A DNA stretch of 64,000 nt from Candidatus Woesebacteria bacterium RBG_16_42_24. Lineage in GTDB: Bacteria; Patescibacteriota; Microgenomatia; UBA8517. This document shows positions 2,874 to 21,954 of the stretch, one piece after another (the stretch's first letter is position 1; each line of letters starts with the position of its first letter). The notes beneath the pieces were generated by a model. That model had not been told where the DNA came from and did no database searches. It saw only the letters and a program-made list of their open reading frames with translations. The position numbers and the translations under genes were made by a program. The DNA lies in contig MGFX01000001.1 of NCBI GenBank assembly GCA_001792115.1, positions 5,847 through 69,846 on the forward strand. Reading direction: 5' to 3'.

Positions 2874-2888
2874 TAGATTACAAAGTTA

Positions 2889-3321
2889 TTGTTACCGACC
2901 ATACTAACGGATGTCAATACCCATTATCTATGAGGCTAATAAATCAATTATTAGCTAATTATGGGATTATTCATGCATAGATTTACCAAGTATTCCAAAA
3001 ATATGTAAATCTTAGCAATATGCTTATTTTTGAAGCTAAATTACTTACTTGTTACCATCCATACTAACTCTCCATATAATTTAGGGTTTTGAGGCTCTTC
3101 CCCATTCTCTAAATCCCTTTTTTAAACAGTTAAAATTTTTGTAAGGAACCGACATCCTGCAATCAATTTTTGCCGTCTAATGCCAAAATATATTCTATTT
3201 TTCTTTTGACATAAATCCTAAAATAATTTCTTTTGTAACGGCGTTTTGCTGAGGTAACTGCTTTTTTTACCCGCCCTCTTTTTTATGATGCTCTGAATAA
3301 AGTGTTACCTACCATACTAAC
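2889..3321. promoter_or_regulatory. Three direct repeats of a 20-bp motif (TTGTTACCGACCATACTAAC / TTGTTACCATCCATACTAAC / GTGTTACCTACCATACTAAC) at 2889, 3049 and 3302, in the divergent AT-rich region between the HTH-GT2 gene and the excisionase-type HTH gene. Candidate operator sites.
   Basis: Direct reading of the sequence. Copies 1 and 3 are each followed by GAGGCTAA(A)TAA. Confidence 0.4.
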
Positions 3322-3478: not shown

Positions 3479-4129
3479 ATGCAGGATACTTCAGAATCTT
3501 TAATTATGCATTTATCAATTGGAAAAGCTTCAAAGTATTTGGGAGTTTCAATAGACACCTTGCGAAGGTGGGAGAAGAAAGAAAAGATATCTTCTCATCG
3601 TTCCCCCGGCGGCCACAGATATTTTCTAAAAGAAGACTTAGATCAGGTATTCCGCCCAAAAAAGAAGGAGAAGCCCAATCTAGTCACAGAGGCACCGATA
3701 CAGGATCGTCAGGAATACACACCACCCAGTCTTCCTGAAGCCCCCCAGCCACCCATAGAGGCCGAAATTAATATACCGGTCAACGAGCCTTTAAGTTGGC
3801 AAGGTTCCGAACCTTCTGAAACTCCTCAAGAGGAACCTCTGGTTCTTAACGAATCTGTCTCCGTCGAAGTACCTACGGCTCCTTCCTACCAACCGCCCTA
3901 CGTTGAGGAAATCCCATCAACTCCCGCCCCTACAGCCGAAGCACAATCATCCAATAGCGAAGAGACTCTCCTTTCGATTAAGGAAAATATCATTGGGAAG
4001 TTACCCCAGAAGCGCACAGTAACAAAAATATATTTTATCTTTCTGGGTCTTTTTCTACTGGTCGACGCATTCCTGTTCTTTTACTGGGTGGGACTTAAGG
4101 GCAATAGTTTCCTCTCTCCCCTTCCTTAG
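3479..4129 (+). CDS. MerR/excisionase-family HTH protein with a Pro-rich linker and a C-terminal TM anchor
   Basis: N-terminus LSIGKASKYLGVSIDTLRRWEKKEK matches excisionase/MerR-type HTH_17. The C-terminus IYFIFLGLFLLVDAFLFFYWVGL is a predicted TM helix. Confidence 0.6.
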   Translation: MQDTSESLIMHLSIGKASKYLGVSIDTLRRWEKKEKISSHRSPGGHRYFLKEDLDQVFRPKKKEKPNLVTEAPIQDRQEYTPPSLPEAPQPPIEAEINIPVNEPLSWQGSEPSETPQEEPLVLNESVSVEVPTAPSYQPPYVEEIPSTPAPTAEAQSSNSEETLLSIKENIIGKLPQKRTVTKIYFIFLGLFLLVDAFLFFYWVGLKGNSFLSPLP

Positions 4130-5913
4130 TAAGCTAATCGTATCTCTCTTTGCCCTTCGGTATATATCAATACATATCCTAATATATCTTTTTCAACCTT
4201 AAGTTTTCTTCCGTCTCCCGCATATGCCTTCCAGTTTGAATCAAATGTGACGGCAACCCTGACGGCATCGGCGGGGGAATCTTGAGAAATCCAATAACCA
4301 TTTGTGAAGCCTGAAACCTTAAGGGGTAATTTTTCGGGTAAAAGATAGGCTTTAAGTGCCGAAAGGTCCTTTCCGTCCTTAGGTTTAACGGTATGATATT
4401 CTTTCTCTAAGTCAATTGACCGAGCTAAGGAATTTTTCGGCATCTCAAGGATAATATCTCCTTTATCCTGCCAAATTACTTTACCTACATCTTTCCACTT
4501 CGATAAATTGACAAAGTCGTGATAATACTCATAGGACTTCGGGGTATGCACCAGAGCGTAAGTTATTCCTAGGCTTTGAAGCCACACACTGGCTAACTCT
4601 CCACTCTCCCCTTCTCTAATTTGATAAGCTGCGTGGTCCCAGTAGGGATTGATCGCGACTTTGTCTTGCCCACCCCTAACTTGGTTTAGGTCGTAAAGCG
4701 CATTTGCCCAAAAGACGGTTGACCCGGAAAGGAAAACTCGCTTTTCCCCGGCGATTTCTGAGAGTTTGGTCAAGGCATACACCCCCTGGGGAATGCTTTG
4801 GGAAATAAGAGCTGGTTTACCGAGGGTGTTATAGATTCGAAAACTTAGCCAATATGGCGAAAGAAACAGAATCAAAATGACAATATATATCTTAACAGAA
4901 TACCTGTGTTCGTTTTTTCTAATAAGGGAATAAGCCACCTGAGCCATCAAAAAGCCTATTCCTATCTCTAATTCATAAAACCAACTGCTCCAATCCTGCC
5001 AAAAATCCGGATCTCCCAGGAGTCTAAAAACACTTAAGAATAAAAACGTCAATAGCCAAGTGAGTGTAAAAACCGTGATTCGGCTTTTCAATTTCCCGGA
5101 AAAGAAAACGCTGACGATTGCCAGGAGGAACGGCAACCCATTTCTCAATATCTCAAAAATCCGTAAAATCACTTTCCCGGCTGAGGCTCCCCCAATAGAG
5201 GGATTAAAAAGAACAGTTGACCAATAGCCGGGCGTGTACCAAAGGGTTACCACTACTAGACTAAGTATCAGAGCCTTTAAGAACTTCTTTGAATAACCCC
5301 AAATGCCCTTTAATTTGCCGGATTTACCTTCCTGCCCCGCACTATACGATGCTGCCAAAATGACAGAGCCGGCTCCGACAATCAATATCGGCAAGATACT
5401 GGTATTGACAAGAAAAAGTAAGGATAGAGCCAATAGGACAACAATCAGTTTTCTCCTGGTGCTTTCTGTTAAATAGACATAAATCATAAATAATACCCAG
5501 GGCAGAAGGTTTCTGGCAACGATGAATGTCGTCTCCTCAAGGGCTAAGCTAGACAAATATCTCCAAGGAAGTATAAGGGCGGCAATTGATACGAATACCC
5601 CGATGATCCTATTCCCAGAGATCTTCCCTGCCAGCTCTCCCCAGCCAATGGCGCCGACGATAAAACTGAAAGTTATTAAAATGAAAGATAGGCTAAAAAG
5701 GCTAACTTGCGGAAAAAGCTTATGCAACAAAACCAAAAGCATTGGAACCACCGGCCCCAGGAGATACTTCGCAGGCAGCCCCAAATACCAGTAAGGGTAC
5801 CATCCTTCGTTAAAACTACGGATGGCAAGCCAGCCATTACTTTCAACCAGTTTTTCTAAATATCTTGAAACGGCTACCGCAACGGGAATGAGGGAGGTTT
5901 GGGAAGGAAACAT
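4126..5913 (-). CDS. Polytopic membrane protein (about 11 TM) with a C-terminal extracytoplasmic domain. Possibly a GT-C-type (PMT/ArnT/YfhO-like) glycosyltransferase; the function call is weak.
   Basis: 595-aa ORF with many hydrophobic helices in the first ~400 aa and a soluble C-terminal domain. No diagnostic catalytic motif recognised. Confidence 0.5.
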   Translation of the reverse strand: MFPSQTSLIPVAVAVSRYLEKLVESNGWLAIRSFNEGWYPYWYLGLPAKYLLGPVVPMLLVLLHKLFPQVSLFSLSFILITFSFIVGAIGWGELAGKISGNRIIGVFVSIAALILPWRYLSSLALEETTFIVARNLLPWVLFMIYVYLTESTRRKLIVVLLALSLLFLVNTSILPILIVGAGSVILAASYSAGQEGKSGKLKGIWGYSKKFLKALILSLVVVTLWYTPGYWSTVLFNPSIGGASAGKVILRIFEILRNGLPFLLAIVSVFFSGKLKSRITVFTLTWLLTFLFLSVFRLLGDPDFWQDWSSWFYELEIGIGFLMAQVAYSLIRKNEHRYSVKIYIVILILFLSPYWLSFRIYNTLGKPALISQSIPQGVYALTKLSEIAGEKRVFLSGSTVFWANALYDLNQVRGGQDKVAINPYWDHAAYQIREGESGELASVWLQSLGITYALVHTPKSYEYYHDFVNLSKWKDVGKVIWQDKGDIILEMPKNSLARSIDLEKEYHTVKPKDGKDLSALKAYLLPEKLPLKVSGFTNGYWISQDSPADAVRVAVTFDSNWKAYAGDGRKLKVEKDILGYVLIYTEGQREIRLAY

Positions 5914-7514: not shown

Positions 7515-7860
7515 TCTCCTCTATGAGCTTTTCGGGCGGGTTATTGACCTTAACCAAATATCCATTTGCACCGAGCTCTATGGCTTTTTTGTAAGATTCA
7601 GTGTCGCTTAGATTGGTGAGCATTATGACCTCGCAGTCCTTGGTTTTCGGATCGCCCTTAAGCTCCTTAAGAACCACAAAACCGTCCATTTCCGGCATCA
7701 TGATGTCACAAAGGATTAAGTCGGGCTTTGACTCTTTGGCTTTTTCAAGGCCTTCCTTGCCGCTCCCGGCCATATCTACTTCGTATTTGCCTAGCGCGAA
7801 GAGTCTAGCGTAAAACCTGAGAACGTAGGGGTCGTCTTCAATAATTAGAATCCTCGACAT
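7492..7860 (-). CDS. Single-domain response regulator (CheY-like receiver)
   Basis: ILIIEDDPYVLRFYARLF..LILCDIMMPEMDGFVVL..VIMLTNLSDTES. Confidence 0.85.
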   Translation of the reverse strand: MSRILIIEDDPYVLRFYARLFALGKYEVDMAGSGKEGLEKAKESKPDLILCDIMMPEMDGFVVLKELKGDPKTKDCEVIMLTNLSDTESYKKAIELGANGYLVKVNNPPEKLIEEIEKHIHG

Positions 7861-7883
7861 TTTTTATATTTTAATTGCCAACC

Positions 7884-11790: not shown

Positions 11791-11794
11791 ATAT

Positions 11795-13987
11795 TCAGTC
11801 TAGCAAATTATCGACCAACTCGTCTTTAGTTAAAAATCCAACCGCAACCTTTTGAACCACCCCTTTTCTATCGAGAAAAACGTGGCTCGGGAAATGTCTG
11901 ATTCCCAAATCCTGAATCAAAAGCCCGTCAGGGTCGGCCACAATATTTAGCTTGTAACCTCCCCTTTTCTTAAATGTTTCTATCTTACTTCTCCCCTCTT
12001 GTTCGGCTACAGCATAGACATTAACACTCTCATAATCTTGGGAAAATGCTTCAAGTGCTCCAATCTGATCTGAAGTTGTAGGCACCCACGTTGAAACAAA
12101 ACTTATGACCGTGGGTTTGCCTAAGATTGAAATATTAGAAACTGTCGTCTCTTGTGTTTCTAGAACAAAATCGGGTAAGACACTCCCTACAGCTTTATTA
12201 TCACCCAAAAGTTCTGTAGTTAGCTGGCTCGTCTCAAACTCGTCAACCCTACTTCTGAAATCTGGTAAACCAATAAATAATCCGCCCAGGGAAATTCCCA
12301 AGCTTTTTTCCAGAACGAAATTTTGATTCACTGGAGTTGGCTTATTAAGCTCAAAGATACTGCTTCTTACACCCTTAAATCCCGAGGCGCTTACGTCTAG
12401 GTAATATTTGCCAGAAGGCAAAATGAGTTTGTAGGCGCCGTCGGCGTCAGTCTTTTGGGGATTTTCCTGACCAAAAGCTTCCCCATCCCAAAGTAAAAAC
12501 TTACCGAGAGTCGGCTCATATATAAATACCGAAACTACTGCCTCAACTTGGTAATCACCTGAAGCCATAACTTTCCCGGCAGGTAGAGAAATGATAGTTG
12601 CCAGTTTTTCTTCGGTAATATTTTGCGCTCCATCTACCGACTTTGTGGTGAGGAAAAAAGTTCCCTCTTTGGCAAAGCTTAGTACCCCTTTCCAAAATCC
12701 GGATTCTACATTCTTAACCATTGAAAATAGCTGCGAATCAGAAAATAAATCAAGAGAAACGGGCCCCCCGGAGGCGGAAAGGGTAACAGAAGTATCCAGG
12801 CCCGTTATGGTTTTAATGACCCCGGAAGAATCGGGAGTCAGAATCATCGGGCCAAGCGAAAAAAGGGCACCGCCGACTTGCGGCGGAAGTCTATCTATAA
12901 TTAGGGTGTATTCTTTGGAGGTAACTTTATTGCCGCTGGGGTCCGTCGCCCTTACTTTAATTTTGTAATTACCGTCGTCGATAATTTCCGGTGTAAACTC
13001 AAAGGTTGTTGATTTTGCTCCGATTGCCCCAAAATCGTCAACTGGAAGCCAGTTTCTTCCACCATCGATAGAATATTCAACTTGAGTTACCCCAACGTCA
13101 TCGCTAGCCTTACCGCTGATTGTGGGAGACTGGCTAAATACTCCCGACAAATCGGTCGTTATAGAAACTGCAGGCAGGCTTGTGTCTGTAGCAGTTTTTG
13201 TTACCGTAGTTGTGGTCGTGGTTGTGGTGGTAACTGTAGTCGAGGCTTTTGATGATACAAAAGTATTATCATTTGTTTCCGTCGAATTACCATCTGCATC
13301 CGCGCTTTGAATACTATAATGGTATGTTGTGTTTGAAGAAAGACCTGTCACCTCAACGCTGTGTGAGGTAACGAGAGTTGAATCACTTTTAGTCGAACCG
13401 TAGCTTGCAGTTGTTCCATAATTAACGACTGAAGTTGCAGCCTCATCGGTAGTCCAGGTTATTTTAACCGACGTTTGTGATACATCGGTAATTGTAAGGC
13501 TGGAAATTGTTGGGGGGTTAACATCGGCAGGAGTAGAAGATATTGCAACAGAAAAGCTTCCTGTACATGTTGTAGGGTTGCTTCCGTCAGAAGAATCTGA
13601 AGCTTGAACAGTCCAGGAAGCAGCAGCAACAGCACTACTCCCCGTGGATACGCTCACATTAAAATCTTTAGTCGAGCTTCCTGGAAAATTACCGGAGGTA
13701 AAGCGAATTACAGTTCCTGAATCAATGGTTGCGGTCATACCATCGGCAGATCCATCAGTTATAGTAAAATTTGATGAAGGTGCTGTGAACTTTAGCCAGA
13801 CAATTGCATTGGAGTCGTTATTGTTTAAAGTAAACGTCAGGTTGGGCGAGGCATTTATTAATACCGTCGTAGGATCAACTTCTCCATCGCAAGATGAAAT
13901 TGCAGCTTTTGATACTTTAGAAGCGAAATTAAAAATAACCAAGACAAGGACAAGTAATAAGCACGCGAATAACCTCAACTTGGGCAT
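11795..13987 (-). CDS. Secreted multidomain protein: signal peptide, fibronectin-III-like domain, poly-Thr linker, Ig-like/CarboxypepD-like domains, and a C-terminal TlpA/redoxin-like domain that has lost both CXXC cysteines
   Basis: N-terminal signal MPKLRLFACLLLVLVLVIF. FN3-like PPTISSLTITDVSQTSVKITWTTDEAATSVVNYGTT...TTYHYSIQSADADGN. TTTTTTTTTVTKT linker. C-terminal GKPTVISFVSTWVPTTSDQ aligns with the TlpA motif GKPVLLNFWATWCPPCR, with Cys replaced by Val and Thr. Confidence 0.7.
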   Translation of the reverse strand: MPKLRLFACLLLVLVLVIFNFASKVSKAAISSCDGEVDPTTVLINASPNLTFTLNNNDSNAIVWLKFTAPSSNFTITDGSADGMTATIDSGTVIRFTSGNFPGSSTKDFNVSVSTGSSAVAAASWTVQASDSSDGSNPTTCTGSFSVAISSTPADVNPPTISSLTITDVSQTSVKITWTTDEAATSVVNYGTTASYGSTKSDSTLVTSHSVEVTGLSSNTTYHYSIQSADADGNSTETNDNTFVSSKASTTVTTTTTTTTTVTKTATDTSLPAVSITTDLSGVFSQSPTISGKASDDVGVTQVEYSIDGGRNWLPVDDFGAIGAKSTTFEFTPEIIDDGNYKIKVRATDPSGNKVTSKEYTLIIDRLPPQVGGALFSLGPMILTPDSSGVIKTITGLDTSVTLSASGGPVSLDLFSDSQLFSMVKNVESGFWKGVLSFAKEGTFFLTTKSVDGAQNITEEKLATIISLPAGKVMASGDYQVEAVVSVFIYEPTLGKFLLWDGEAFGQENPQKTDADGAYKLILPSGKYYLDVSASGFKGVRSSIFELNKPTPVNQNFVLEKSLGISLGGLFIGLPDFRSRVDEFETSQLTTELLGDNKAVGSVLPDFVLETQETTVSNISILGKPTVISFVSTWVPTTSDQIGALEAFSQDYESVNVYAVAEQEGRSKIETFKKRGGYKLNIVADPDGLLIQDLGIRHFPSHVFLDRKGVVQKVAVGFLTKDELVDNLLD

Positions 13988-14586
13988 TAAGATAATAATA
14001 CACCGCTACCTTCCCTTGTTTCTAGGACGAAGCTATACGAAAACCACCAGTAAATAAACAGCCACCCTAAAACTGCCAATGTAGAGCCGTAATCGTGGAA
14101 AATTATTGCTACGTTTTGGCCAAAATAGAAAGCAATAATGACAACAAACGCAATTCTGCCGAGGTTAACTAAAAAAGTTCCCAAAAAACCAATAAGCCAG
14201 GCTTTTACTTTTGACAAATTTGTGTATCTGTCGCCCTGCAACCCTATCCAGGAGGTTAGTACAAAAAACAAAAGGCTCTGCCAACCGACACAATTCCAAG
14301 CAATTTCAATTAGAAATGGTTGCTCCTTACCAATTGCAAGATACTCCCCTACCACTGCCGGCTGAAAACCGAAGGGATACAGAATCACCCCAACCATCCT
14401 AATTTCCCAGGGAACAACATAATTTTGGATAAATTTATAAGCATCAAGATTCATTACAACTCTTGTTAAAATGTCATTAAATGTCGTCACAAAAGGCATA
14501 AACATCAAAACAAAAACCAAGATCAAAAATATATATATAAATGTCTTTTTTTGGAAAATAAATTTTTTACTTGAGACTATAGTCAT
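13987..14586 (-). CDS. Minimal exosortase/archaeosortase-family protein (core domain, ~6 TM)
   Basis: 199-aa polytopic membrane protein with a conserved Cys in AWNCVGWQSL (compare exosortase ACSGxRSL) and an N-x-x-R-I motif (VNLGRIAFV). Overlaps upstream and downstream genes by 1-4 nt. Confidence 0.5.
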   Translation of the reverse strand: MTIVSSKKFIFQKKTFIYIFLILVFVLMFMPFVTTFNDILTRVVMNLDAYKFIQNYVVPWEIRMVGVILYPFGFQPAVVGEYLAIGKEQPFLIEIAWNCVGWQSLLFFVLTSWIGLQGDRYTNLSKVKAWLIGFLGTFLVNLGRIAFVVIIAFYFGQNVAIIFHDYGSTLAVLGWLFIYWWFSYSFVLETREGSGVLLS

Positions 14587-15353
14587 TCTTTTATAATGCT
14601 GAGATTATTGACTTTCGGATTCACCAAAATTTGAGAATTTACAACTATCGGTCTGCTTTCCGGATTGATTGTGTTATTTAGTTGTCCGTTCAAATATATA
14701 TTAATTAACATGGGTTCTGATAGAAAATCCCACTGAATCTCAAGATTATAACTTTTCCCAAAATAATCTTCGCCAAGGTTGCCATTAGAATCATTTGCAA
14801 CGTGTCCTCCGATATCGTTGTAAAAATCACACGTTATTTCATTGCCCGTTCCTGCTATAATGAGTGCGTTTTTCTGGTCAGTACCGTTAAAGTTAGCAAC
14901 AAGTAGTGTTTCTTCTTCATTCTCTCCAATCCAATCAGGAACAAAACTAAAAGAAATCTTACCCTTCTGAATATCCAGATTCCCTTTGTCATACGGCGTG
15001 AGTTTAGATAAATCACTGGGGACAAAAAACTGGTAATTGGGATTAGGGATAGGGCCTGCGGCTGGAGTCTCAACTTTACTTGTCGGAGTGGGAGGAATAG
15101 AATCCTTTTCTTGTTTATCTTGCAAGGCTATTTCGGTATCCTCAAAATCCCTACTATCCAGTCCAGTTGTATCACCTTCCTCCACACCTTGTCGAACATT
15201 AGCTTCTTCTTCAACTTCTCCTAATACTTCTGGTGCTTCTCGACTGTCTATTTCTTCTTTTCCTTCTTCCTTAAAAGTTAAAATCAGAACAAACAATATT
15301 GTTAGCCCCAAAACTAGAAAAATCCAGCGTCTCTTATTTAATCTTAGAAACAT
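14583..15353 (-). CDS. Membrane-anchored hypothetical protein (N-terminal TM, acidic linker, beta-rich C-terminal domain)
   Basis: 256-aa ORF starting 2 nt after the giant gene stop. The giant gene's terminal AGGAGGG provides its RBS. The N-terminal helix is WIFLVLGLTILFVLILTF. Confidence 0.6.
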   Translation of the reverse strand: MFLRLNKRRWIFLVLGLTILFVLILTFKEEGKEEIDSREAPEVLGEVEEEANVRQGVEEGDTTGLDSRDFEDTEIALQDKQEKDSIPPTPTSKVETPAAGPIPNPNYQFFVPSDLSKLTPYDKGNLDIQKGKISFSFVPDWIGENEEETLLVANFNGTDQKNALIIAGTGNEITCDFYNDIGGHVANDSNGNLGEDYFGKSYNLEIQWDFLSEPMLINIYLNGQLNNTINPESRPIVVNSQILVNPKVNNLSIIKE

Positions 15354-15354: not shown

Positions 15355-18300
15355 TTACCCTCCTTTTTTCTTCTTTTTATTTAAAAACGATAAATATTTT
15401 GAAATAACAGGCAATGCCAACAAAAGAATCAGCGTTTTCTCGGGTACTACGGCAAATTCAAAATTAGTCCCTTCCCTCAATACCACGCCTATTTGTGAAC
15501 TTCCCGCACCACTTAAGGGACCGGAAATCTGCCCCAAATGATCTGCGCTACCGCTCCATCCCCAATCACTTTCACTCCCCCAGAAAATAGTTGTCGCGTC
15601 AGTTGATTTTAGATATGCCTTCTCATTAGTATCCTTGATTACGCTCGCGTAAAGATCTGAATTTGACGAATCGTAAGTGATTGTAGCCGAGGTAATATTT
15701 GTTTGGCTTGTCCACGGATCTGGCTCATCCGTCCAAGTAGGAAGGCAGTCCGCCGTGTCACAATCCGCAAAATAAACAGGGGGCTGGCTGGATTCCAAAG
15801 CATCATAATAAACAAGCTTGCAGTTCGTCGAGGATGGACAAGCAAGAGCAGATCTGGTCGGTGGATTTTCCAAATCAATAACGCTTCCAGAGGCACAAGC
15901 CGCACTATCGCAGTCGAAAAAATATTGATCTTCAGGGGAGGCTGTATTTCCTACATAAACTCCCTTACAATCATTTGCTCCATTACTACAATCAAGATCA
16001 ACGCCAAATGTAGTTAAACCTCCCGCAGTATCATCAATTTTGGTTATGGTATAATTGGCAGACGTGCAAGTTGCATCTCCGCAATCTACAAAATTAAATT
16101 CAAGCTGGCTTCCGTCCGCATAGATTAATTTGCAGTCAGTTGCCCCCGGAGTACAATCAATTGCGTTGGGAACATTAACTGAGGTTCCTCCAACATCCGT
16201 ATCGATATCAAGCTCGGTTCTGGAAGCACAAGTCGTAGAGGCGGTGCAGTCAATCAATGTAAGATCTCCCTCAACTGCGTCATGGTAGAGTATTTTGCAA
16301 TCATCTGCCGCAGGGCACCAAATAGAGTTTTTTGCATTTGAATTTGTTGTATTAATATTTAAAGAAATAGCAGTTAAAGCATCTCTCGTCGAACAGTTCG
16401 CATTTGAGCAGTCAGCAAACCATAAATCGTCAGTATCGTCTTCAAAAAAAACAACTTTGCAGTCAGTATCCCCCATACAATATAAAGAAGTGTTAGGCTT
16501 AGAAGTACTACCTCCCAAATCTCCATTGATATCCCCCTGGCTCGGAGCAGAACAAGTTTCATCATTACAATCTATAAGACTCACATCAGGACTATTTCCT
16601 CCTAAAAGATCCCCGTGTGCGATCTTACAATTGTTAGAAGTTACGCAAAATAAGGCTGGTGAAGGGGCATTAGTTGCGCTTCCTGTATCGGAATCTATGA
16701 CCCTTGGAGTACCGGAGCCAAAAGTCGAACAGTTTTCATCATCGCAGTCGACAAACACAAGATCAGGCCCAGCAGTTTCTAGGTTATCCACATAAACCAC
16801 TTTACAATTAGCCGGATCAGAAGTTGGACACCAAATATCCATTTCTGTATCTTGTTCGTCTCCGGATGAACCTGTGTCTGAGTCTATTAAAAACTCTGCA
16901 ATGTCTGCGGTACAACAGGAATAAAGTCTTGTATTTTGGTTAGTCGAAGTGTCAACGCTTAACGCCCAAATATTTGTACCGTCAGTAGTTACCGAGTAAA
17001 TAGTGTCTGTAACTGAACCAATGGTTTGATTATTCCTTCTCCATTCATCTCTCGAAGCATCATACTTGGCAAATGAAAGGTCTGTTCCGTCCTGAAACAC
17101 AACGGCAGCACTGGTTGCATCAAGTCCAACCAAGACCGGCCTATCTCCCGAAGTTAAACCAGCCCCTTGTGTTCCAAAGGTTACATTCCCAGTAACAACT
17201 GAGGTTGTGTTTCCGCTGCAAGACCCATCTAGACCCGCAATCTCAAAAGCGTTTATCTCAGCATCTCCACCGGTTGTATCCGAATAGGCGATGAGAACGC
17301 TAGTATCTGAAAACTGGGCAACTGAAGTCATAAACGTATTTCCAATAGCCCCAGCCTCTATGCTGGTCTGGCAAAGGGTTCCCTGTGCATCAGAACTTGC
17401 AGTATCAATTCGACGCCCTTCTGACCTATCTGCTCCATCATCTATCCACCAAACATGGATTATATTGTTGGAAACAGCTATTGAGGGATTATAATTATCT
17501 GTATCTCCGTCATCCACAGTAACCGCCGGATCCCAAGACAGCCCGTCTGAAGATTTCTTAAAAAAGATTCTTCCCCCCGTTGAGGCAGTACACGTTACTG
17601 CGTCGCAGTTATAAAATGCGTACCAGTTTCCATTTACATAGGCTACTTTCCTTTGCAGCCCGCCGTACTGAACTTCCCCTTCCTCTATTCCTCCAGAAAC
17701 TATTACCGAAGGATCGATTGAAATTGGGAAAACTCGCTCTTTCGCCGAAAGCCATGAGCCAAAATTTTGGCCAAAACTTTTTATAAGTCTATAGCCTATT
17801 TTGTCTTTCTCTAAACTAAAATCAATATCGTAGCTCACCTCGCCCATTGCATCTTTGGCAAAGGGTTGGGAAAACTTAAACAATTCCTCCCCTTCTTTAC
17901 TATAAAATCCAAAAGCTTCTGAATTTGGCGATACTATTTTTACGTCTGTGGTTTTCACAGATTGTATTATCGAAGCAGATGAGGAAAGTGAAGAGGAATC
18001 CTTTAATATAAATTCTTCAATCAATACATTACCTGCAATAGAATATTTTAAATCAACACCCTCAATTACTTCCTCATAAACAACTTCTTTATTTGAATAT
18101 ATTTTTGATTCCGAGGGAAAAGCTTTCTTGCCACCAATAGATAAAGTCTCAAATTCTACTTCACGACCATCGGCCTTAATTCTTACTCTGGGCTCTTTAT
18201 GGAATATAAACTCTATCTGTTTACCGCTCTTGGCGGTTTTAACAATCGCTCTTGGCGTGTCAATCTGGCGTGTAGAAGCATTTTTTAAAATTGTCTCTTT

Positions 18301-21195
18301 ATTGGAAGGATTTTTTGCCTCTGTAACTTCGTCGGAATGTGAAGCACTCAATAGATCCTGGGCTGTTCTAAGGTTTGGTTCTGAGGCGTAAGCAAGGTTG
18401 GATACTGGAATAAAGGGAGAAATAGCGGCCAAAATTGAACTCAGTGACAAAAGTAGGGATAAAGCAAAGTTCCCAAGTTTTCTTTTATTTCTCGGCAAAA
18501 TTCTGAAGTTGTCAAAGCGAGAGTTGGCAGTAGCCAGGGATAGATAAGGGTTTAGGGAGTTAGGGTTTAGCCTGCCTGCCGGCAAGGCAGGGGTATTGGC
18601 ATTAGGTTTTAGACTAAACCCTAGACCCCAGTGCCTAGCACCTAGTGTCTGCAAAGCAGGTGCCCTTCCGGGCAAAATCCCTGATATGAATCTGTAGAAT
18701 CTGCCCCTGGTAAAGATGTCTGTGATACGTCCTGTCTTGGGGGTTCTAAACCAAGGTCCTTCGCTTTTTTCCAGGAAACCTTTTAAGGAGGCGTAGGCTT
18801 GGAAGGGAACGAGAATGTAGGATAATGCCACAAATGAGGCAAGACCTGCATAGTCTTTTTCTTCCGACTCCTCAAGAAATAGTCCCACGGCATTCATTAG
18901 AGGTAGGGCCAGTAAGTTGGTTAAGACCAGACTCCAGCCCCAGAGCTCTGTCCAGAAGGGCAGGTGGGCTCTAAAGACGGTTTCAGAGACAAGCCAGGAG
19001 AGGGTTCCCACCAGGAAGAAGAAGGCCTGGAGGTAGTAAGGGGAAAGGTAAAGGAATTCGAGCTTTTCACTAAAAGATAGAGGGGAAGGAATCCAGCTCT
19101 TTGACGATGGAGGATGGGGGGTAGAAGATAGTGGTTGAGGATTGAGGTTAGAAGATTGACTTTCTACCTTCAAACTTCTACCTTCTACCCCCACATTCAA
19201 TCCTCTACCTTCTACCGTCGAATCTTCCCAGTGTCCAAACATCAGTCTCACAAACATCCTTTTAATGTTGTTTGAGTGTCCTTCTGCCCATCTCATTCTT
19301 TGCCTGACTAGTCTTTTAATGGTGGAGACACACTCGGCAGGGGCTTGGATGTAAGGGGTATAGACCACTTTGTAGCCAGCTTCGTAGAGTTTTAGGGTCA
19401 GTTCAAAGTCCTCGGTGATTGAAGTTTCCCAGCCTACTTCTTCTAAGACATCTCTTCTGATCATATAGACCGATCCTGAAATCTGTTTAAGGCCTGAATA
19501 GATTTCAGTTCCTGAACGCTCAATGACGTATGAACCGGCATACTCACTCCTTACTCCCCTGGTTATCCAGTTCTCGGACTTATTTAAGACGTGCCACTGG
19601 TAACCTTGCACCGCAGCTATGCGCTGCCCGTGATCCGTAATTTGTAATTCGTCATTCGCAGTTTTATTCGGTTTACTATTTACGGATGACTGTTTACTTT
19701 TGGCGAAGTCTAACGAGCCTGCAGTTACCTGGAAGTACTTAAGGAATAGTGTCAGGGTGTCAGGATACGGTACAAAGTCTGCGTCAAAGACAGAAACGAA
19801 TTCTGCCCTGGGGTCTGTATGGATTAGAGCCTCCCTTAATGCCCCACCTTTAAACCCCGAGCGGGAGGTCCGATGCAGGTGCTTAACTATTACTCCCGGG
19901 GCTACCTCTACCGAGCTTAACGTCCAGCCCTCCCCCCCTCTGAATTTGGAATTTGGAATTTGGAATTTTCCAAGATAATCAGAGATTATCTTGGATGTCC
20001 CATCTGTCGAGTCGTCGCAGAGAATTACCTCATACTCTCCTTCATAGTCAAAGCTGGTTGAGGCGTTGATTAGTCTTTCAACTACATTCTTCTCGTTATA
20101 AAGGGGTATATGGATGGAGATAAAGGGGTGTCTAGTTAGTCTTACATGCTCAAGGTTTGCTTCCAGTCCTCCGGCTTTTGTCAAATTAGCTTGTTTCTTG
20201 TCGTTTGCCTTCCTGCCACCCAGACCCAAAAGCCAAGTCAATAGACTTTTTCCTCTGGCTTCAATCCCAATTTCACCTTCCCCTTTTCCTTCTTGGCTGA
20301 ATGACAAGACTAGTGCCAAAGTTAGATAGTATTTAAGAGAGTAGAGGAAGAAAACTGAACCTATCAAAAGAGCAACCGTGGCAAAAAAAAGTCCAGCGCT
20401 ACCCATACCTGCTTTTTCGGCAGTTGTTACCACATACCCAAAGAACCCAGTTAAGAAGATTGTTGCCCCAAAAGAAAGAGAAAACGCAGTCAATATTCTG
20501 ATTACTTTCTTGCGAGTTTCGTGGGAAAGTGCAAAAAACTGCCCTACTCTCCCTAAAACGGCCGCGATTGTCCTTATCTGTGGAGTGATTTGGCCTTGAG
20601 CGAATAAGAATCTTTTTTCAAAAGTAGAAAGGTCGCTCCTTCTAAGTATGTTCTGCACCCCATGATGGCTAAGGATAGGGTGAACCCCGACCTTGGGAAG
20701 ATTTTGAACTATTTTTCTAACGCCGTACTTAGGATATTTAGAAACTAGAGACTTAACGGCCTCTTCGTATAGCTGGGGAGCCTGTCTAAAATACCTTTTA
20801 ACCTGCGGAATTTGATCGCTAACGGCCATTATCCTTTTATCCGGCGCCAGTTGATACCTTTTGATCCACTTATAAATAGTGTTTCGAGAAACTTCGTATT
20901 CTTTGGCAAGCGAAGATATATCTTTTTCTTTAGCTAAAGCAGCCTCAACCATCCTGAATCTCTCGAGAGAAGAGAGTTTTCTAAACACAATTTTCTTTGG
21001 GGTTTGAGATTTTCGAGGTCGGCCTCCGATCTTAAAACTTAATCCATTCTCTCCATACCTTCTATATCTATTCAGCCATCTATAAAAAATCGTGCGTGAG
21101 ATTTGATACTTTCCACAAATAGAAGATACGCTCTCACCTTCAAGAGCTCTTTTAATAAGCTCAATTCTTTGCTTAGCTGAATATTTAGGCTGCAT
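15355..21195 (-). CDS. Giant 1946-aa fusion protein: transposase-type HTH domains, TM, processive family-2 glycosyltransferase (DxD, QRMRW) with post-catalytic TM bundle, signal-anchor, extracellular Asp-box (BNR) region, seven ~45-aa Cys-rich repeats, and a C-terminal PEP-CTERM-like sorting tail (VVPEK-TLILLLALPVISKYLSFL-NKKKKKGG)
   Basis: HTH: SVSSICGKYQISRTIFYRWLNRY and ISSLAKEYEVSRNTIYKWIKRYQ. GT2: ILCDDSTDGT, VFDADFVP, RLVRQRMRWAEGH. Asp-box SSDGLSW. Repeats of the form C..NCK[VLI][VI]Y....[FL].DC....C seven times. Tail compared with the PEP-CTERM consensus VPEPSTLALLGLGLL..RRRK. Confidence 0.8.
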   Translation of the reverse strand: MQPKYSAKQRIELIKRALEGESVSSICGKYQISRTIFYRWLNRYRRYGENGLSFKIGGRPRKSQTPKKIVFRKLSSLERFRMVEAALAKEKDISSLAKEYEVSRNTIYKWIKRYQLAPDKRIMAVSDQIPQVKRYFRQAPQLYEEAVKSLVSKYPKYGVRKIVQNLPKVGVHPILSHHGVQNILRRSDLSTFEKRFLFAQGQITPQIRTIAAVLGRVGQFFALSHETRKKVIRILTAFSLSFGATIFLTGFFGYVVTTAEKAGMGSAGLFFATVALLIGSVFFLYSLKYYLTLALVLSFSQEGKGEGEIGIEARGKSLLTWLLGLGGRKANDKKQANLTKAGGLEANLEHVRLTRHPFISIHIPLYNEKNVVERLINASTSFDYEGEYEVILCDDSTDGTSKIISDYLGKFQIPNSKFRGGEGWTLSSVEVAPGVIVKHLHRTSRSGFKGGALREALIHTDPRAEFVSVFDADFVPYPDTLTLFLKYFQVTAGSLDFAKSKQSSVNSKPNKTANDELQITDHGQRIAAVQGYQWHVLNKSENWITRGVRSEYAGSYVIERSGTEIYSGLKQISGSVYMIRRDVLEEVGWETSITEDFELTLKLYEAGYKVVYTPYIQAPAECVSTIKRLVRQRMRWAEGHSNNIKRMFVRLMFGHWEDSTVEGRGLNVGVEGRSLKVESQSSNLNPQPLSSTPHPPSSKSWIPSPLSFSEKLEFLYLSPYYLQAFFFLVGTLSWLVSETVFRAHLPFWTELWGWSLVLTNLLALPLMNAVGLFLEESEEKDYAGLASFVALSYILVPFQAYASLKGFLEKSEGPWFRTPKTGRITDIFTRGRFYRFISGILPGRAPALQTLGARHWGLGFSLKPNANTPALPAGRLNPNSLNPYLSLATANSRFDNFRILPRNKRKLGNFALSLLLSLSSILAAISPFIPVSNLAYASEPNLRTAQDLLSASHSDEVTEAKNPSNKETILKNASTRQIDTPRAIVKTAKSGKQIEFIFHKEPRVRIKADGREVEFETLSIGGKKAFPSESKIYSNKEVVYEEVIEGVDLKYSIAGNVLIEEFILKDSSSLSSSASIIQSVKTTDVKIVSPNSEAFGFYSKEGEELFKFSQPFAKDAMGEVSYDIDFSLEKDKIGYRLIKSFGQNFGSWLSAKERVFPISIDPSVIVSGGIEEGEVQYGGLQRKVAYVNGNWYAFYNCDAVTCTASTGGRIFFKKSSDGLSWDPAVTVDDGDTDNYNPSIAVSNNIIHVWWIDDGADRSEGRRIDTASSDAQGTLCQTSIEAGAIGNTFMTSVAQFSDTSVLIAYSDTTGGDAEINAFEIAGLDGSCSGNTTSVVTGNVTFGTQGAGLTSGDRPVLVGLDATSAAVVFQDGTDLSFAKYDASRDEWRRNNQTIGSVTDTIYSVTTDGTNIWALSVDTSTNQNTRLYSCCTADIAEFLIDSDTGSSGDEQDTEMDIWCPTSDPANCKVVYVDNLETAGPDLVFVDCDDENCSTFGSGTPRVIDSDTGSATNAPSPALFCVTSNNCKIAHGDLLGGNSPDVSLIDCNDETCSAPSQGDINGDLGGSTSKPNTSLYCMGDTDCKVVFFEDDTDDLWFADCSNANCSTRDALTAISLNINTTNSNAKNSIWCPAADDCKILYHDAVEGDLTLIDCTASTTCASRTELDIDTDVGGTSVNVPNAIDCTPGATDCKLIYADGSQLEFNFVDCGDATCTSANYTITKIDDTAGGLTTFGVDLDCSNGANDCKGVYVGNTASPEDQYFFDCDSAACASGSVIDLENPPTRSALACPSSTNCKLVYYDALESSQPPVYFADCDTADCLPTWTDEPDPWTSQTNITSATITYDSSNSDLYASVIKDTNEKAYLKSTDATTIFWGSESDWGWSGSADHLGQISGPLSGAGSSQIGVVLREGTNFEFAVVPEKTLILLLALPVISKYLSFLNKKKKKGG
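19621..19700. repeat. In-frame 75-80 bp MITE-like insertion inside the GT2-coding region of the giant gene. It is made of left-end-like and right-end-like sequences of the 21205-21665 four-helix-bundle cassette, and is absent from the paralog at 1121-1180.
   Basis: ccgtaatttgtaattcgtcattcgca resembles cgtaatccgtaatctgtcattcgtca (21214-21239). tcggtttactatttacggatgactg resembles tcggattacgatttacggatgacgg (21638-21662). It adds ~20 aa (..SKPNKTANDELQITDHGQR..) without breaking the frame. Confidence 0.55.
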
Positions 21196-21204: not shown

Positions 21205-21665
21205 TTTAAGTTCGTAATCCGTAATCTGTCATTCGTCACCCGGATACAAGCTCAGATTACGAATCGTCATCTTTTTTTCTTTTCTCTGTTGAACGTATCA
21301 ACCCACTTATTAACTGAAATCCTTGATTTATTTTGTCTATTAAAGATTGAAATTCATCACCTGTAAGGAAATTTAGGTCTTTAGCTAATATAAGAAAATT
21401 TTGTACCTCTGCGTTTGAGCCACGAGCCTGATAATAAAAACGTATCTTATCAGCGAAATGATATCTCCCCCAGCCTTCCGCTATGTTGGCAGTCACAGAA
21501 GATGCCGCCCTTCGAAGCTGGTCAATAAGACCAAATCTTTCACTATTAGGGAATTTCCTCGTAAGTCTATAAATGGCGACAGCCACATCGTGGTTAACTC
21601 TCCAAGCATCAAGATCAGAAAAATGCATGTTTTTCTTCGGATTACGATTTACGGATGACGGATTA
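21205..21665. mobile_element. Small cassette carrying four-helix-bundle gene copy 3, bounded by related ~26-bp terminal sequences. Candidate non-autonomous IVS-like mobile element.
   Basis: Left end TTCGTAATCCGTAATCTGTCATTCGTCACC (21209-21240) plus internal inverted copy GATTACGAATCGTCATC. Right end GGATTACGATTTACGGATGACGG (21640-21662). A deletion derivative of both ends lies at 19621-19700. Confidence 0.5.
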
Positions 21666-21670
21666 TTCAT
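21257..21670 (-). CDS. Four-helix-bundle protein (23S rRNA IVS protein family), copy 3
   Basis: ..WRVNHDVAVAIYRLTRKFPNSERFGLIDQLRRAASSVTANIAEGWGRYHFADKIRFYYQARGSNAEVQNFLILAKDL.. matches the TIGR02436-type family. Confidence 0.75.
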   Translation of the reverse strand: MNNPSSVNRNPKKNMHFSDLDAWRVNHDVAVAIYRLTRKFPNSERFGLIDQLRRAASSVTANIAEGWGRYHFADKIRFYYQARGSNAEVQNFLILAKDLNFLTGDEFQSLIDKINQGFQLISGLIRSTEKRKKDDDS

Positions 21671-21954
21671 AAGAGTACTGTAAACACCTTTTTAGTGTCC
21701 TAAGGCTAATTTTACGCTTATCTTTCATGTTAACATCCAGTGGGTAACGTCTGTCAAGCCCATTTTTGTATAAATAGGTATCTTTCTATGACAACGTATG
21801 AATTGACGATGAAATAAGAAATACTTTGACTTAAGAAATTGTTATTACTTTAATGAAGTATAATAATAAGAAGCAATTACATAATTAATGTTAAATGTCC
21901 CAAATAATAGGATATTATTGCGAGTCTAAATTATACTCAAAATACTCAAAACAT

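Follow-up and report, generated by a model that had tools for sequence, protein, structure and literature searches.

A giant synthase of Microgenomates predicted to regulate itself and to carry the substrate of a miniature sortase

We analysed a 64,000-nucleotide stretch of DNA from Candidatus Woesebacteria bacterium RBG_16_42_24 (the window) and found that a giant open reading frame (ORF) within it is a genuine member of a large CPR/Patescibacteria family. The family consists of three-part membrane proteins present in multiple copies in Microgenomates (Patescibacteria), in which a helix-turn-helix (HTH) head, a synthase and an ectodomain are joined, and it appears to be so far undescribed. 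The protein is probably a self-regulating synthase whose ectodomain is the dedicated substrate of a sortase homolog encoded nearby, with both the sorting and the autoregulation being predicted functions. The observations reported here concern the domain architecture, the fold of the synthase, conservation of the tail throughout the family, linkage to a sortase gene that retains the catalytic residues, and a DNA element exclusive to the front of these genes.

15355..21195, minus strand: giant ORF of 1946 aa, in the order HTH, GT2 synthase, ectodomain, putative sorting signal

The reading frame is single and uninterrupted, and the fusion of HTH and GT2 domains is common to more than 120 independent protein clusters and to 395 genomic matches in species-representative genomes. 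Of 71 synthase ORFs whose 5′ end was intact, 70 carried the HTH. The original prediction of a family of HTH-synthase fusions in this genome was correct, and the family proved far wider than one genome. Given that the HTH matches transposase families, that CPR metagenome bins are fragmented, and that homologs are annotated by JGI as 'glycosyltransferase/transposase', an assembly or gene-calling fusion, or the HTH of an active insertion sequence that landed upstream, was also considered. The same continuous architecture was found in clusters from independent assemblies, however, no DDE/rve domain was detected in the giant protein (Pfam and NCBIfam profile search, E ≤ 1), and the promoter element described below has no inverted partner downstream, as the ends of an insertion sequence would show. 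Recurrence of the fusion, the intact frame and the missing DDE/rve domain refute this explanation in practice, and we regard it as exceedingly improbable; the chimera that had been named as a threat to the original prediction is excluded by the same clusters, genomic matches and 5′ ends.

20593..21189, minus strand: predicted cytoplasmic DNA-binding head, with HTH1 at aa 3-62 and HTH2+HTH3 at aa 76-201 (Pfam, NCBIfam)

Pfam HTH_28, HTH_23, HTH_Tnp_1 and HTH_29 matched within these two regions of the head, above their own cut-offs. Two or three HTH modules of the IS3/IS630 kind had been proposed for this region; both of the peptides then quoted are present and three HTH units were found, but the best transposase match was to the N-terminus of IS481 (NCBIfam NF033577, 84.3 bits, E 9.8e-24). 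In this alignment, aa 79-193 pair with model positions 2-111 of 284, and HTH2+HTH3 are equivalent to the first ~110 aa of an IS481-type transposase; the whole-protein score of 84.3 lies below the family threshold of 224. The head helices (7-52, 76-116 and 141-201) were modelled with pLDDT mostly above 90, and the HTH region has no solved-structure sequence relative to guide a DNA-binding model. We read the three HTH units of the head as descendants of the DNA-binding part of an IS481-type transposase that has lost its catalytic domain. It shares HTH_28/HTH_32-type units with IS481 transposases, whereas the giant protein lacks the DDE domain and paired terminal repeats, and it represents a clear case of domestication of a transposase DNA-binding domain into a membrane enzyme. 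ToxR and CadC join a cytoplasmic DNA-binding domain covalently to a membrane protein that also has an extracytoplasmic part. The predicted head of the giant protein is likewise tied to a membrane part and an extracytoplasmic domain, but ToxR and CadC are single-pass sensors whereas the membrane part here is an enzyme with about six helices.

20296..20523, minus strand: two long N-terminal TM helices, aa 225-300, with the invariant motif G279...YSLKYY
19237..20133, minus strand: GT-A catalytic domain, aa 355-653 (profile matches, invariant motifs, model)
18718..19074, minus strand: three long C-terminal membrane/interface helices, aa 708-808 (alignments, model)

The Pfam families Glyco_trans_2_3, Glyco_tranf_2_3 and Glycos_transf_2 all matched above cut-off, so that the searches for HTH-type and GT2 domains on which the original prediction had staked itself were both positive. 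The TM helices and the GT2 motifs that it listed were located: DDSTDGT at 394-400 (with invariant DDS..D at 394-398), DADF at 471-474 and QRMRW at 632-636, the last on the interface helix, in addition to GYQWHVLN at 531-538 and TED at 594-596. After the interface helices, an invariant W-F-R-T-P-K-T-G (aa 815-822) lies in a region of low model confidence. Synthases of this type have a cytosolic gating loop at this place (FxVTxK, as in cellulose synthases, or WGTR-type), which W-F-R-T-P-K-T-G resembles in position and sequence. The D,D,D, TED, QxxRW and WFRTPKTG motifs were invariant in alignments of 40 and 79 sequences.

In an AlphaFold2 model of the N-terminal part (pLDDT 77.6), the GT domain is flanked by TM helices at either end. 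Foldseek searches with this model returned BcsA (E 1.5e-14), CvHAS (target TM-score 0.58), Chs1 and CesA8, and the top matches were nearly all membrane-integrated processive synthases (BcsA, HAS, Chs1, CesA), which bears out the earlier comparison with cellulose, chitin and hyaluronan synthases. A four-helix TM bundle had been expected after the GT2 domain; helices are present there, but the model shows three long helices together with an interface helix rather than a clear four-helix bundle. Sequence and model identify the core as a processive GT2 synthase integrated in the membrane, of the BcsA/hyaluronan-synthase type. The curated models TIGR03030 (BcsA/CelA; 68.8 bits versus a cut-off of 699.1) and TIGR03937 (PgaC; 64.8 versus 422.3) gave similar scores, each well short of its threshold, and so do not point to a particular sugar. 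The core shares with BcsA, HAS, CHS and CesA a TM-flanked GT-A domain, D,D,D and TED motifs and QxxRW on an interface helix, and its W-F-R-T-P-K may correspond to their gating loop. It differs from BcsA in having only two N-terminal TM helices and no PilZ match (Pfam, giant protein), as well as in the triple HTH at its N-terminus, the fused variable ectodomain of ~1000 aa and the sortase-type tail.

18382..18507, minus strand: internal signal-peptide-like segment, aa 897-938, with basic n-region RNKRK, hydrophobic core and A-Y-A|S
16876..18273, minus strand: ectodomain part 1, with a beta-sandwich at aa ~975-1165 and an all-beta, propeller-like region at aa ~1184-1440
15721..16866, minus strand: seven 4-Cys repeats, aa 1456-1817, C-x5-7-C-K-x-x-[YFH]...D-C-x4-5-C, period ~55 aa

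A signal-anchor followed by about 1000 aa of extracellular sequence had been predicted, and the anchor indeed lies at about aa 897-938, with about 1000 aa beyond it. Family members have a mean of 3.8 K/R in the 12 residues preceding the hydrophobic core, and an [AV]-x-A site was present in 33 of 55 members versus a background of 16% (p = 1.4e-13, by a simple motif-enrichment test rather than a trained predictor); A-Y-A|S may be a signal peptidase I site. If the ectodomain is outside, the number of membrane crossings must be even, so that one of the three long helices modelled after the GT domain would be an interface helix; that one of these helices is interfacial is argued from charge, the position of the gating loop and Cys content.

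The ectodomains are hypervariable across the family and do not align. In the giant protein, the beta-sandwich is weakly DUF7948-like, and the region that follows was modelled as an all-beta, propeller-like fold. The BNR region proposed earlier is weakly supported: the Asp-box SSDGLSW (aa 1215-1221, nt 17533-17553) is present and the model is propeller-like, but it is the sole strict Asp-box and no BNR family matched the ectodomain (Pfam HMM, E ≤ 10). GH74 and sialidase propellers were among the Foldseek matches to the whole ectodomain. The seven Cys repeats noticed at the outset were recovered, each with about four strands in the model (pLDDT about 85-95), which fits a 7-bladed beta-propeller; the Foldseek matches were tandem propellers, and copy numbers in other proteins cluster at 7 or 14. 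The repeat is rare (130 matches among 1.84e9 representatives) and has no Pfam model. The window also contains a DsbA-like gene, and this gene and the Cys-rich ectodomain together fit an extracytoplasmic location.

15358..15456, minus strand: putative C-terminal sorting signal, F-A-V-V-P-E-K, TM helix (LILLLALPVISKYLSFL), KKKKK
13987..14586, minus strand: miniature exosortase/archaeosortase-family protein of 199 aa (TIGR04178), the putative tail-processing enzyme

Three features escaped the original prediction and left it incomplete, namely the putative sorting signal at the C-terminus, the sortase gene close by and the promoter element peculiar to the family. P1918 and E1919 were at least 90% conserved across the family alignments even though the ectodomains cannot be aligned. 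All intact members end in [VI]-P-E/D-x, a TM helix (often with P-F-L-P) and a basic cluster, with two being P-D variants, and the tail logo reads [VI]-P-E-[NKR]-LLLL..P-F-L-P..[KR]n. Sortase-type signals characteristically have such a motif where the helix begins and basic residues after the helix (PMC1569441), and the family tail resembles an exosortase sorting signal. The third position of the motif is N, K, R or I and never a conserved P, in departure from the Pro-Glu-Pro of PEP-CTERM, and four representative tails matched no NCBIfam sorting-signal model, including TIGR02595 (E ≤ 10).

The 199-aa protein scored 39.7 bits with TIGR04178 against a cut-off of 23. Haft 2006 defined the EpsH motifs C-x-G, N-x-x-R and His (PMC1569441). 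Among 48 sortase homologs, the corresponding residues were conserved as C99 (48/48), G101 (48/48), N141 (43/48), R144 (46/48) and H164 (47/48); four residues past the conserved His, A and S occur as well as G. The best named subfamily was ArtC, at 18.9 bits and thus below its cut-off of 100. Sortase homologs, which form 417 clusters, are about 185-210 aa long with roughly 4-6 hydrophobic segments. Given that classical exosortases have at least eight TM helices (PMC1569441), the competence of the ~200-aa sortase is assumed.

The sortase gene was located downstream of the synthase on the same strand in 29 of 39 informative loci, and in 15 loci it abuts or overlaps the synthase stop. This arrangement speaks against the C-terminal helix being simply a second anchor, and such an anchor would not need the near-invariant P-E/D exactly at the helix start or the basic cluster; moreover, the tail is the sole conserved feature among the otherwise unalignable ectodomains and, within the sampled loci, is confined to synthase-family ORFs, leaving no other ORF with a comparable tail as an alternative substrate. 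The competing explanation, that the HTH-synthase is fused to a surface adhesin and doubly anchored while the sortase homolog processes different proteins or serves some other function, does draw on several observations. Ten of the 39 informative loci have no sortase gene within 10 kb, a minority of members carry a conserved cytoplasmic extension of ~35 aa beyond the tail helix that would be unusual for a cleaved signal, and the sortase is far shorter than the classical enzymes. BcsB has one TM helix at its C-terminus, which packs against BcsA. The ectodomain and single C-terminal helix of the giant protein are reminiscent of BcsB in topology, and by this analogy the helix could pack on the synthase in the same manner. 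We consider a plain anchor unlikely.

The proposed sorting system is similar to PEP-CTERM/exosortase systems (EpsH, XrtA) in its tripartite C-terminal signal with Pro-Glu on diverse, poorly annotated passengers (PMC1569441), in its polytopic enzyme with C-x-G, N-x-x-R and His, and in its genetic association with polysaccharide synthesis. It differs from them in the motif [VI]-P-E/D-[NKR], in the small size of the enzyme, in the internal position of the export signal after the synthase rather than at the N-terminus, and in its monoderm-like CPR hosts; in addition, each sortase gene in the sampled loci has only a single candidate substrate, the synthase itself, where PEP-CTERM systems have many across a genome. 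The XrtG system of Firmicutes comprises a Firmicu-CTERM protein, the exosortase XrtG and two associated GT2 glycosyltransferases (PMC12854382). In both it and the present loci, a gene of the exosortase family sits in a cluster with GT2 and with a dedicated substrate that bears a C-terminal signal, and the bacteria lack an outer membrane, but substrate, sortase and GT2s are separate proteins in the XrtG system, whereas the substrate is here fused to the GT2 synthase. The GT2 of the window scored below the XrtG-associated TIGR03111 (16.5 versus 363.95 bits) and the XrtP-associated NF053846 (29.7 versus 520), and the window sortase matched only the generic TIGR04178 signature.

21757..21727, minus strand: putative promoter/operator element, type A, TTGACA-gac-GTTACCCA-ctggat-GTTAACAT
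21257..21670, minus strand: four-helix-bundle gene of 137 aa, 23S_rRNA_IVP family (PF05635 E 3.4e-34, TIGR02436)
1..2871, minus strand: partial paralog with HTH, TM, GT2, TM, signal anchor and the start of a different ectodomain, running off the window
2888..2917, minus strand: variant promoter element of the paralog, TTGACA-tcc-GTTAGTA-tggtc-GGTAACAAT
3479..4129, plus strand: MerR-type HTH protein with a C-terminal TM helix (Pfam MerR E 1.2e-12), divergent from the paralog

In the element upstream of the giant ORF, a conserved spacer core separates a -35 box from a -10-like box that contains an imperfect inverted half-site; the consensus is TTGACA-N3-4-(G)TACCCA-N5-7-G[GT]TAACA. The 23S_rRNA_IVP-family gene is wedged between the element and the giant ORF, where it probably heads the operon; elsewhere in the family the element lies 1-170 nt from the synthase start. 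A strict regular expression for the element was observed 32 times versus 0.1 expected, 29 of 30 profile matches (E ≤ 0.1) were upstream of HTH-synthases, and in an unbiased metagenome-wide search with DNA alone all 21 testable matches preceded the N-terminus of an HTH-synthase. The spacer core was missing from 67 of 85 generic promoter-like sites. The element is exclusive to the front of HTH-synthase genes. The frame of the paralog, which had been recognised from the start as sharing the same N-terminal architecture, extends without a stop from the edge of the window to its ATG at 2871 (given earlier as 2873), and its HTH-TM-GT2-TM-anchor layout matches that of the giant protein.

The HTH1 recognition helix was SRKTxYxW in 16 of 16 proteins downstream of type-B elements and ISR[TV][ILV][FL]YxW at all 11 type-A sites for which HTH1 was captured, and tandem paralogs in one genome comprised one element/HTH1 pair of each sub-type. 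This co-variation is confounded by phylogeny, the sub-types following two sub-families, and the link between the HTH head and the element is correlative. The element might alternatively be bound by another factor, such as the membrane-anchored MerR-type protein or a dedicated sigma factor, with the HTH head serving in dimerisation, general DNA tethering or binding of a non-DNA ligand. MerR-family activators bind dyads in promoter spacers of 19-20 nt, and the spacer of type-A elements, at 19 nt, is typical of MerR-regulated promoters. The MerR-type gene is conserved and divergent in about 15 loci and lies beside the paralog in the window, which makes its product a candidate co-regulator and rival binder; of the 15 type-A and 16 type-B elements, however, 6 and 1, respectively, have it nearby, which leaves 9 and 15 without it, whereas nearly all synthases carry the fused HTH. 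The sub-type of the element also follows the HTH1 class without exception in the captured cases, and the element occurs nowhere but before genes encoding the head. We consider binding by another factor unlikely.

In the favoured model of a self-regulating synthase with a dedicated sortase substrate, the enzyme would polymerise a UDP-sugar and thread the polymer through its own channel, while the internal signal-peptide-like helix would export the hypervariable all-beta ectodomain, which in the giant protein is predicted to comprise a beta-sandwich, a propeller-like region and a seven-blade propeller rich in disulfides. The small sortase homolog would recognise the P-E motif at the outer face of the membrane, remove the C-terminal anchor and transfer the ectodomain to a cell-surface acceptor, and signal peptidase may part the ectodomain from the synthase at the internal [AV]-x-A site. 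The HTH head would bind the element that lies in its own promoter, between the -35 and -10 boxes, giving rise to membrane-tethered autoregulation. Substrate signal and polysaccharide synthase would then reside in one polypeptide, with a minimal dedicated sortase adjoining. We know of no polytopic membrane enzyme that serves as an exosortase substrate.

A more elaborate version joins these parts. The sortase might ligate the new C-terminus of the ectodomain directly onto the polysaccharide emerging from the same polypeptide, or onto its lipid-linked form, and the head and element might be a domesticated transposase DNA-binding domain and its terminal-repeat-like site, acting as a membrane-tethered switch that places each paralog under its own cognate operator. 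We hold this combined version to be speculative and on balance doubtful. If true, the gene would be a natural fusion that physically ties exosortase substrates to polysaccharide synthesis. The identity of the exosortase acceptor and the reason for the placement of these systems in polysaccharide loci have been an open question since 2006, and in the compact two-gene system described here cleavage, acceptor and coupling to polymer export are directly testable. An abundant, multi-copy family with hypervariable ectodomains is also the pattern expected of host-attachment molecules. CPR/Patescibacteria have few recognisable regulators, and the conserved, putative HTH-operator pair would be a rare testable regulatory circuit in these bacteria.

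14583..15353, minus strand: secreted or anchored protein of 256 aa with no assigned family
11795..13987, minus strand: secreted protein of 730 aa with FN3/Ig domains and a C-terminal thioredoxin-like (ResA/DsbE-type) domain
4126..5913, minus strand: polytopic membrane protein of 595 aa with ~10 TM helices and a soluble C-terminal domain of ~230 aa

The 256-aa protein, whose gene is packed tightly between those for the synthase and the sortase, is conserved only in the closest relatives. The gene for the 730-aa protein overlaps the sortase stop by 1 nt; the protein has no homolog in the other loci and is specific to the window, and it may serve disulfide handling for the Cys-rich ectodomain. 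The 595-aa protein matched no NCBIfam model and no PDB profile. The loci contain 39 homologs of it (E down to 1e-138), often as the third conserved gene beside the synthase or the sortase, and PF10131 (PTPS_related) was weakly matched by 5 of 24 members of its family, with a best E of 2e-5.

The open reading frame at 15355..21195 on the minus strand is single and unbroken, encodes 1946 amino acids, and has a composition with nothing unusual relative to the rest of the window, which is chromosomal given that an rRNA operon and tRNAs lie in it. All sequence features quoted in the original prediction are present in this giant ORF, and both its observation and its interpretation were upheld; the label "BNR" for part of the protein was weakly founded. 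The features of the protein and of the genes that proved to accompany it are as follows.

Features of the giant protein (aa positions) and associated genes (window positions)
aa 3-62 and 76-201, minus-strand ORF: helix-turn-helix (HTH) units, Pfam HTH_28/HTH_23/HTH_Tnp_1/HTH_29
aa 394-400: DDSTDGT, motif of the GT2 domain
aa 471-474: DADF, motif of the GT2 domain
aa 632-636: QRMRW, motif of the GT2 domain, on the interface helix in the model
about aa 911-929: hydrophobic anchor
aa 1215-1221: Asp-box SSDGLSW, single copy
aa 1456-1817: seven four-cysteine repeats
13987..14586, minus strand: 199-aa membrane protein, two genes downstream of the giant ORF
4126..5913: 595-aa polytopic membrane protein adjoining the partial paralog, with 39 homologs in the fetched loci

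The family of HTH-synthase fusions that had been proposed for this genome reaches far beyond it. A search of 5.8 billion proteins found more than 120 clusters of proteins that combine HTH and GT2 domains in a single polypeptide, with lengths of 1070 to 3142 aa and sources in Woese-, Davies-, Gottesman-, Chisholm- and Roizmanbacteria as well as unnamed Patescibacteria, and a scan of species-representative genomes gave 395 confirmed matches. The 72 fetched loci include 71 synthase ORFs whose 5' end is intact, and 70 of these have the HTH head; many genomes contain multiple copies, frequently in tandem. The partial paralog at the left edge of the window is likewise real: its frame starts at an ATG at 2871, stays open as far as that edge, and has the N-terminal layout of the giant protein. 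Assembly chimerism was rejected because the same fusion occurs in hundreds of independent contigs. We regard the architecture and family membership of the giant protein as close to certain. No description of an HTH-GT2 fusion was found in the searchable literature, including that on CPR bacteria. Many of the TPA_asm MAG records behind the loci (L001, L004, L008, L012, L014 and others) bear titles that do not fit this Patescibacteria-type gene family ("uncultured Gammaproteobacteria bacterium", "Bathyarchaeia archaeon", "Nevskiaceae", "Dehalococcoidales"), and these are probably placeholder or mis-binned labels.

The GT2 domain scored above cut-off with three Pfam GT2 models, and its three predicted motifs were all found. 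Six motifs show little or no variation across 79 family members: D394-D395-S-x-D398, D471-x-D473, GYQWHVLN, T594-E-D596, Q632-R-M-R-W636 and W815-F-R-T-P-K-T-G822. For the C-terminal half of the GT domain, the sole solved relatives by sequence are BcsA proteins. In an AlphaFold2 model (mean pLDDT, 77.6), aa 1-935 comprise, beyond the HTH head, two long N-terminal transmembrane helices, a GT-A domain, the interface helix and three more long helices. Its best structural matches were nearly all membrane-integrated processive synthases: BcsA of E. coli and Rhodobacter, hyaluronan synthases of a Chlorella virus and Xenopus, chitin synthases of yeast and an oomycete, and plant CesAs. Together, the invariant motifs and these matches bear out the suggested resemblance to cellulose, chitin and hyaluronan synthases, and on this basis the giant protein is predicted to work like that class. 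It nevertheless lies outside the cellulose-synthase equivalog (68.8 bits; cut-off, 699) and the PgaC equivalog (64.8 bits; cut-off, 422), and Pfam detected no PilZ domain in it.

Both HTH peptides quoted in the original prediction fall within Pfam HTH matches, and their transposase-type character was confirmed, but the attribution to IS3/IS630 was not: the top curated match of the head was to IS481-family transposases, over their N-terminal ~110 residues, with IS3, IS630 and the IS66 accessory protein matching more weakly. A PDB sequence search returned no solved relative of the head, the three helical bundles of which were modelled by AlphaFold2 with pLDDT mostly above 90. Neither Pfam nor NCBIfam detected a DDE/rve domain in the giant protein. 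An active IS element was rejected in that both a DDE domain and paired repeats are missing; judged from its sequence matches, the head is a putative domesticated transposase DNA-binding region rather than a transposase.

When the stretches of 120 nt ahead of the synthase starts were aligned, an element emerged with the consensus C-TTGACA-N3-4-(G)TACCCA-N5-7-G[GT]TAACA(T). GTTAC is the reverse complement of GTAAC, which makes an imperfect dyad of the -10-like box and the conserved core in the spacer. The strict pattern was counted 32 times in the loci and the window (1.08 Mb together), where 0.1 occurrences are expected. Thirty occurrences lie directly upstream of HTH-synthase N-termini, and another is the window's own copy (21757..21727), ahead of the four-helix-bundle gene that probably heads the operon of the giant ORF. 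The one unexplained occurrence is an extra type-B copy at L031:536-568; the copy adjoining the synthase in that locus lies about 630 nt further downstream, and no recognisable HTH-synthase start comes right after the extra one. A DNA profile of the element placed 29 of 30 matches at E<=0.1 upstream of synthases, including matches outside the set used to build it.

Given that the loci had been chosen for containing synthases, we separately searched the whole JGI metagenome collection by DNA alone, with the type-A form as an exact pattern of 22 specified bases. Twenty-seven contigs matched. An HTH-synthase N-terminus follows in all 21 that have at least 250 nt downstream (E 1e-12 to 1e-126). Of the six shorter contigs, three also have one, and the others have fewer than 80 nt downstream, too little to judge; no off-target site was seen among the 27, some of which duplicate contigs of the genome collection. 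The alternative that the element is simply the general promoter consensus of these organisms was rejected, since 67 of 85 TTGACA-N15-19-TAnnAT sites are without the core and the metagenome search matched only HTH-synthases. With a spacer of 19 nt, the element escapes a generic promoter scan.

Element sub-type and head sequence vary together. Type B (...GGTAAC, 17-nt spacer) precedes a first HTH unit of the form [IV]-[ST]-R-K-T-x-Y-x-W in 16 of 16 cases, and type A (...GTTAAC, 19-nt spacer) was accompanied by I-S-R-[TV]-[ILV]-[FL]-Y-x-W in all 11 units captured; tandem paralogs within one genome include one pair of each element and HTH type. A membrane-anchored MerR-type gene, divergent from the synthase, is near 6 of 15 type-A elements and 1 of 16 type-B elements, but as a universal binder of the element its product was rejected, being missing from most element-bearing loci. 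On the most parsimonious interpretation, the head fused to each synthase would bind the promoter of its own gene; we give this an even chance, and the evidence for it is a correlation confounded by descent. The transposase-derived head would then be matched to a promoter element known only at HTH-synthase genes.

The anticipated signal-anchor ahead of the ectodomain corresponds to the hydrophobic stretch between synthase and ectodomain. Across the family, this junction contains every part of a signal peptide: a mean of 3.8 K/R in the 12 residues ahead of the hydrophobic core, a core of 15-20 residues, and an [AV]-x-A site after it in 33 of 55 members versus 16% of control windows (p=1.4e-13). 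The site in the giant protein is A-Y-A|S (aa 935-938), and we infer from these features that signal peptidase may separate the synthase and ectodomain halves. Several features agree with an ectodomain outside the cytoplasm: a basic stretch with a gating-loop-like motif before the segment, a Cys-rich propeller after it, KKKKK after the last helix, and genes in the window for DsbA-like and thioredoxin-like proteins. The DsbA-like thioredoxin-fold protein (55520-56350, minus strand), followed directly by a 349-aa ORF (56360-57409, minus strand), fits a role in extracytoplasmic disulfide formation in Cys-rich surface proteins.

Searches of Pfam (E<=10), NCBIfam and PDB sequences found no relatives of the ectodomain except a sub-threshold match to DUF7948. 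The region that had been called BNR, ahead of the Cys repeats, is propeller-like and has the one Asp-box, but no BNR model matched the ectodomain in Pfam at E<=10. The AlphaFold2 model of aa 936-1946 (mean pLDDT, 80.2) is all-beta, and its Foldseek matches were all tandem beta-propeller proteins (GH74, NanB sialidase, LRP6, DDB1, galactose oxidase). All seven predicted Cys-rich repeats were confirmed, each with four cysteines and contributing about four strands to the model. The repeat is scarce (130 representative clusters among 1.84 billion at E<=1e-3) and is carried both by synthase fusions and by stand-alone secreted proteins. Its copy number per protein clusters at 7 or 14, which supports a model in which the repeats form one or two seven-bladed propellers. 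Other family members have unrelated ectodomains (DUF2341, LamG-like, Kelch and MG2 domains), marking this as the hypervariable part of the protein.

The giant protein ends in ...FAVVPEK-TLILLLALPVISKYLSFLN-KKKKKGG. P1918 and E1919 are conserved to at least 90% in two alignments, of 40 and of 79 diverse family members, although the ~1000 residues ahead of them cannot be aligned. The tail consists of [VI]-P-E-[NKR], then a hydrophobic helix in which positions +11 and +14 are P (P-F-L-P), and finally at least four K/R. Among the 53 synthase ORFs with a 3' end inside a locus, 41 have the strict pattern; the 12 that do not comprise five with variant tails (two with P-D) and seven fragments from frameshifts or N-masking, so that every intact member has the tail. 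All credible tails in the loci are on synthase-family ORFs. A layout of motif, helix and basic cluster is how Haft and colleagues defined PEP-CTERM and LPXTG signals (PMC1569441); the tail differs from PEP-CTERM in that its third motif position is not proline. An NCBIfam scan of four representative tails (E<=10) returned no sorting-signal model. Some members (P0023, P0034, P0036, P0043, P0044, P0055, P0080 and P0092) have a cytoplasmic extension of ~35 aa past the basic cluster with a conserved end, ...L-D-x-L-P-V, and in these the signal is not at the extreme C-terminus.

The 199-aa protein scored 39.7 bits against the exosortase/archaeosortase signature model (cut-off, 23), and its gene is tightly packed, with overlaps of 4 nt with the upstream and 1 nt with the downstream gene. 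A protein of Ca. Woesebacteria bacterium RBG_19FT_COMBO_42_9 is 100% identical to it, and on that ground the window was assigned to this genome. The EpsH motifs are kept among 48 homologs from the loci: W-N-C-x-G-W-Q-S (C and G in 48 of 48), N-x-x-R (N in 43, R in 46) and a His (47). For 39 synthase genes the sequence beyond the gene extends for 3 kb or more, and 29 of them have such a gene downstream on the same strand. It lies within 3 kb in 25 cases, and in 15 it abuts or overlaps the stop codon of the synthase (-28 to +20 nt). Public data hold 417 clusters of homologs of ~190-210 aa, which are far shorter than classical exosortases (at least eight transmembrane helices) and fit no named exosortase subfamily. 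We consider it likely that this miniature sortase and the tail of the giant protein are related as enzyme and substrate, in which case a new P-E/D-type C-terminal sorting signal would be served by a dedicated miniature exosortase homolog.

Clustering of exosortases with GT2s has a precedent in the XrtG system of Firmicutes, comprising a CTERM protein, XrtG and two GT2s (PMC12854382). The parts of that system are separate proteins, however, and the GT2 of the giant protein fails the XrtG- and XrtP-associated models. A literature search found nothing relevant on exosortases or archaeosortases in Patescibacteria, CPR or Microgenomates. The fuller picture would have four parts: an HTH head with its element, a BcsA/HAS-like synthase, a hypervariable exported ectodomain, and a P-E/D tail with a mini exosortase homolog. 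Every single component is of a known kind. We found the combination described neither in the literature nor in curated model libraries; seemingly new are, in particular, a polysaccharide synthase that itself bears a sortase signal and, with it, the pairing of HTH and operator.

The 595-aa membrane protein is probably a third component; its homologs are encoded on the same strand as the synthase and lie immediately ahead of it or immediately past the sortase. PF10131 (PTPS_related membrane protein) matched 5 of 24 members of this family weakly; NCBIfam gave nothing meaningful and a profile search no PDB relative. A PTPS-related protein as part of the XrtG system was rejected, as the XrtG paper names none among its components, and the PF10131 match therefore stands only as a weak match. 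A 256-aa protein between synthase and sortase is kept in the closest relatives alone. A 730-aa FN3/Ig/thioredoxin-like protein is specific to the window, and directly downstream of the synthase-sortase operon (7089-11338, minus strand) are a double-Cache sensor, a PAS histidine kinase and two receiver-domain proteins; these genes, too, are found in the window alone, and both they and the 730-aa protein were rejected as family components, not being conserved in other loci.

Three paralogous "23S rRNA intervening-sequence protein" four-helix-bundle genes (21257-21670, 11389-11799 and 5967-6365, minus strand) are wedged into operons, the first between the synthase element and the synthase. Homologs elsewhere are wedged between synthase and sortase or past the sortase (L047:16495-16884, L012:7587-7961), and the genes behave like small insertions. 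The rRNA operon (39394-49813) is broken up by protein genes: an ORF for a 711-aa TraG/VirD4-like coupling ATPase (46072-48207, opposite strand) lies between 16S and tRNA-Ile/tRNA-Ala, and a LAGLIDADG endonuclease ORF (40111-40614) between the 23S and 5S genes. A KaiC/RadA/DnaB-like ATPase gene (34553-37135, minus strand) holds an intein with a LAGLIDADG homing-endonuclease domain. In a GC-rich patch at 30000-34000 (0.48-0.50 versus about 0.42 elsewhere), a 471-aa ORF without a family match (31121-32536) may be foreign DNA.
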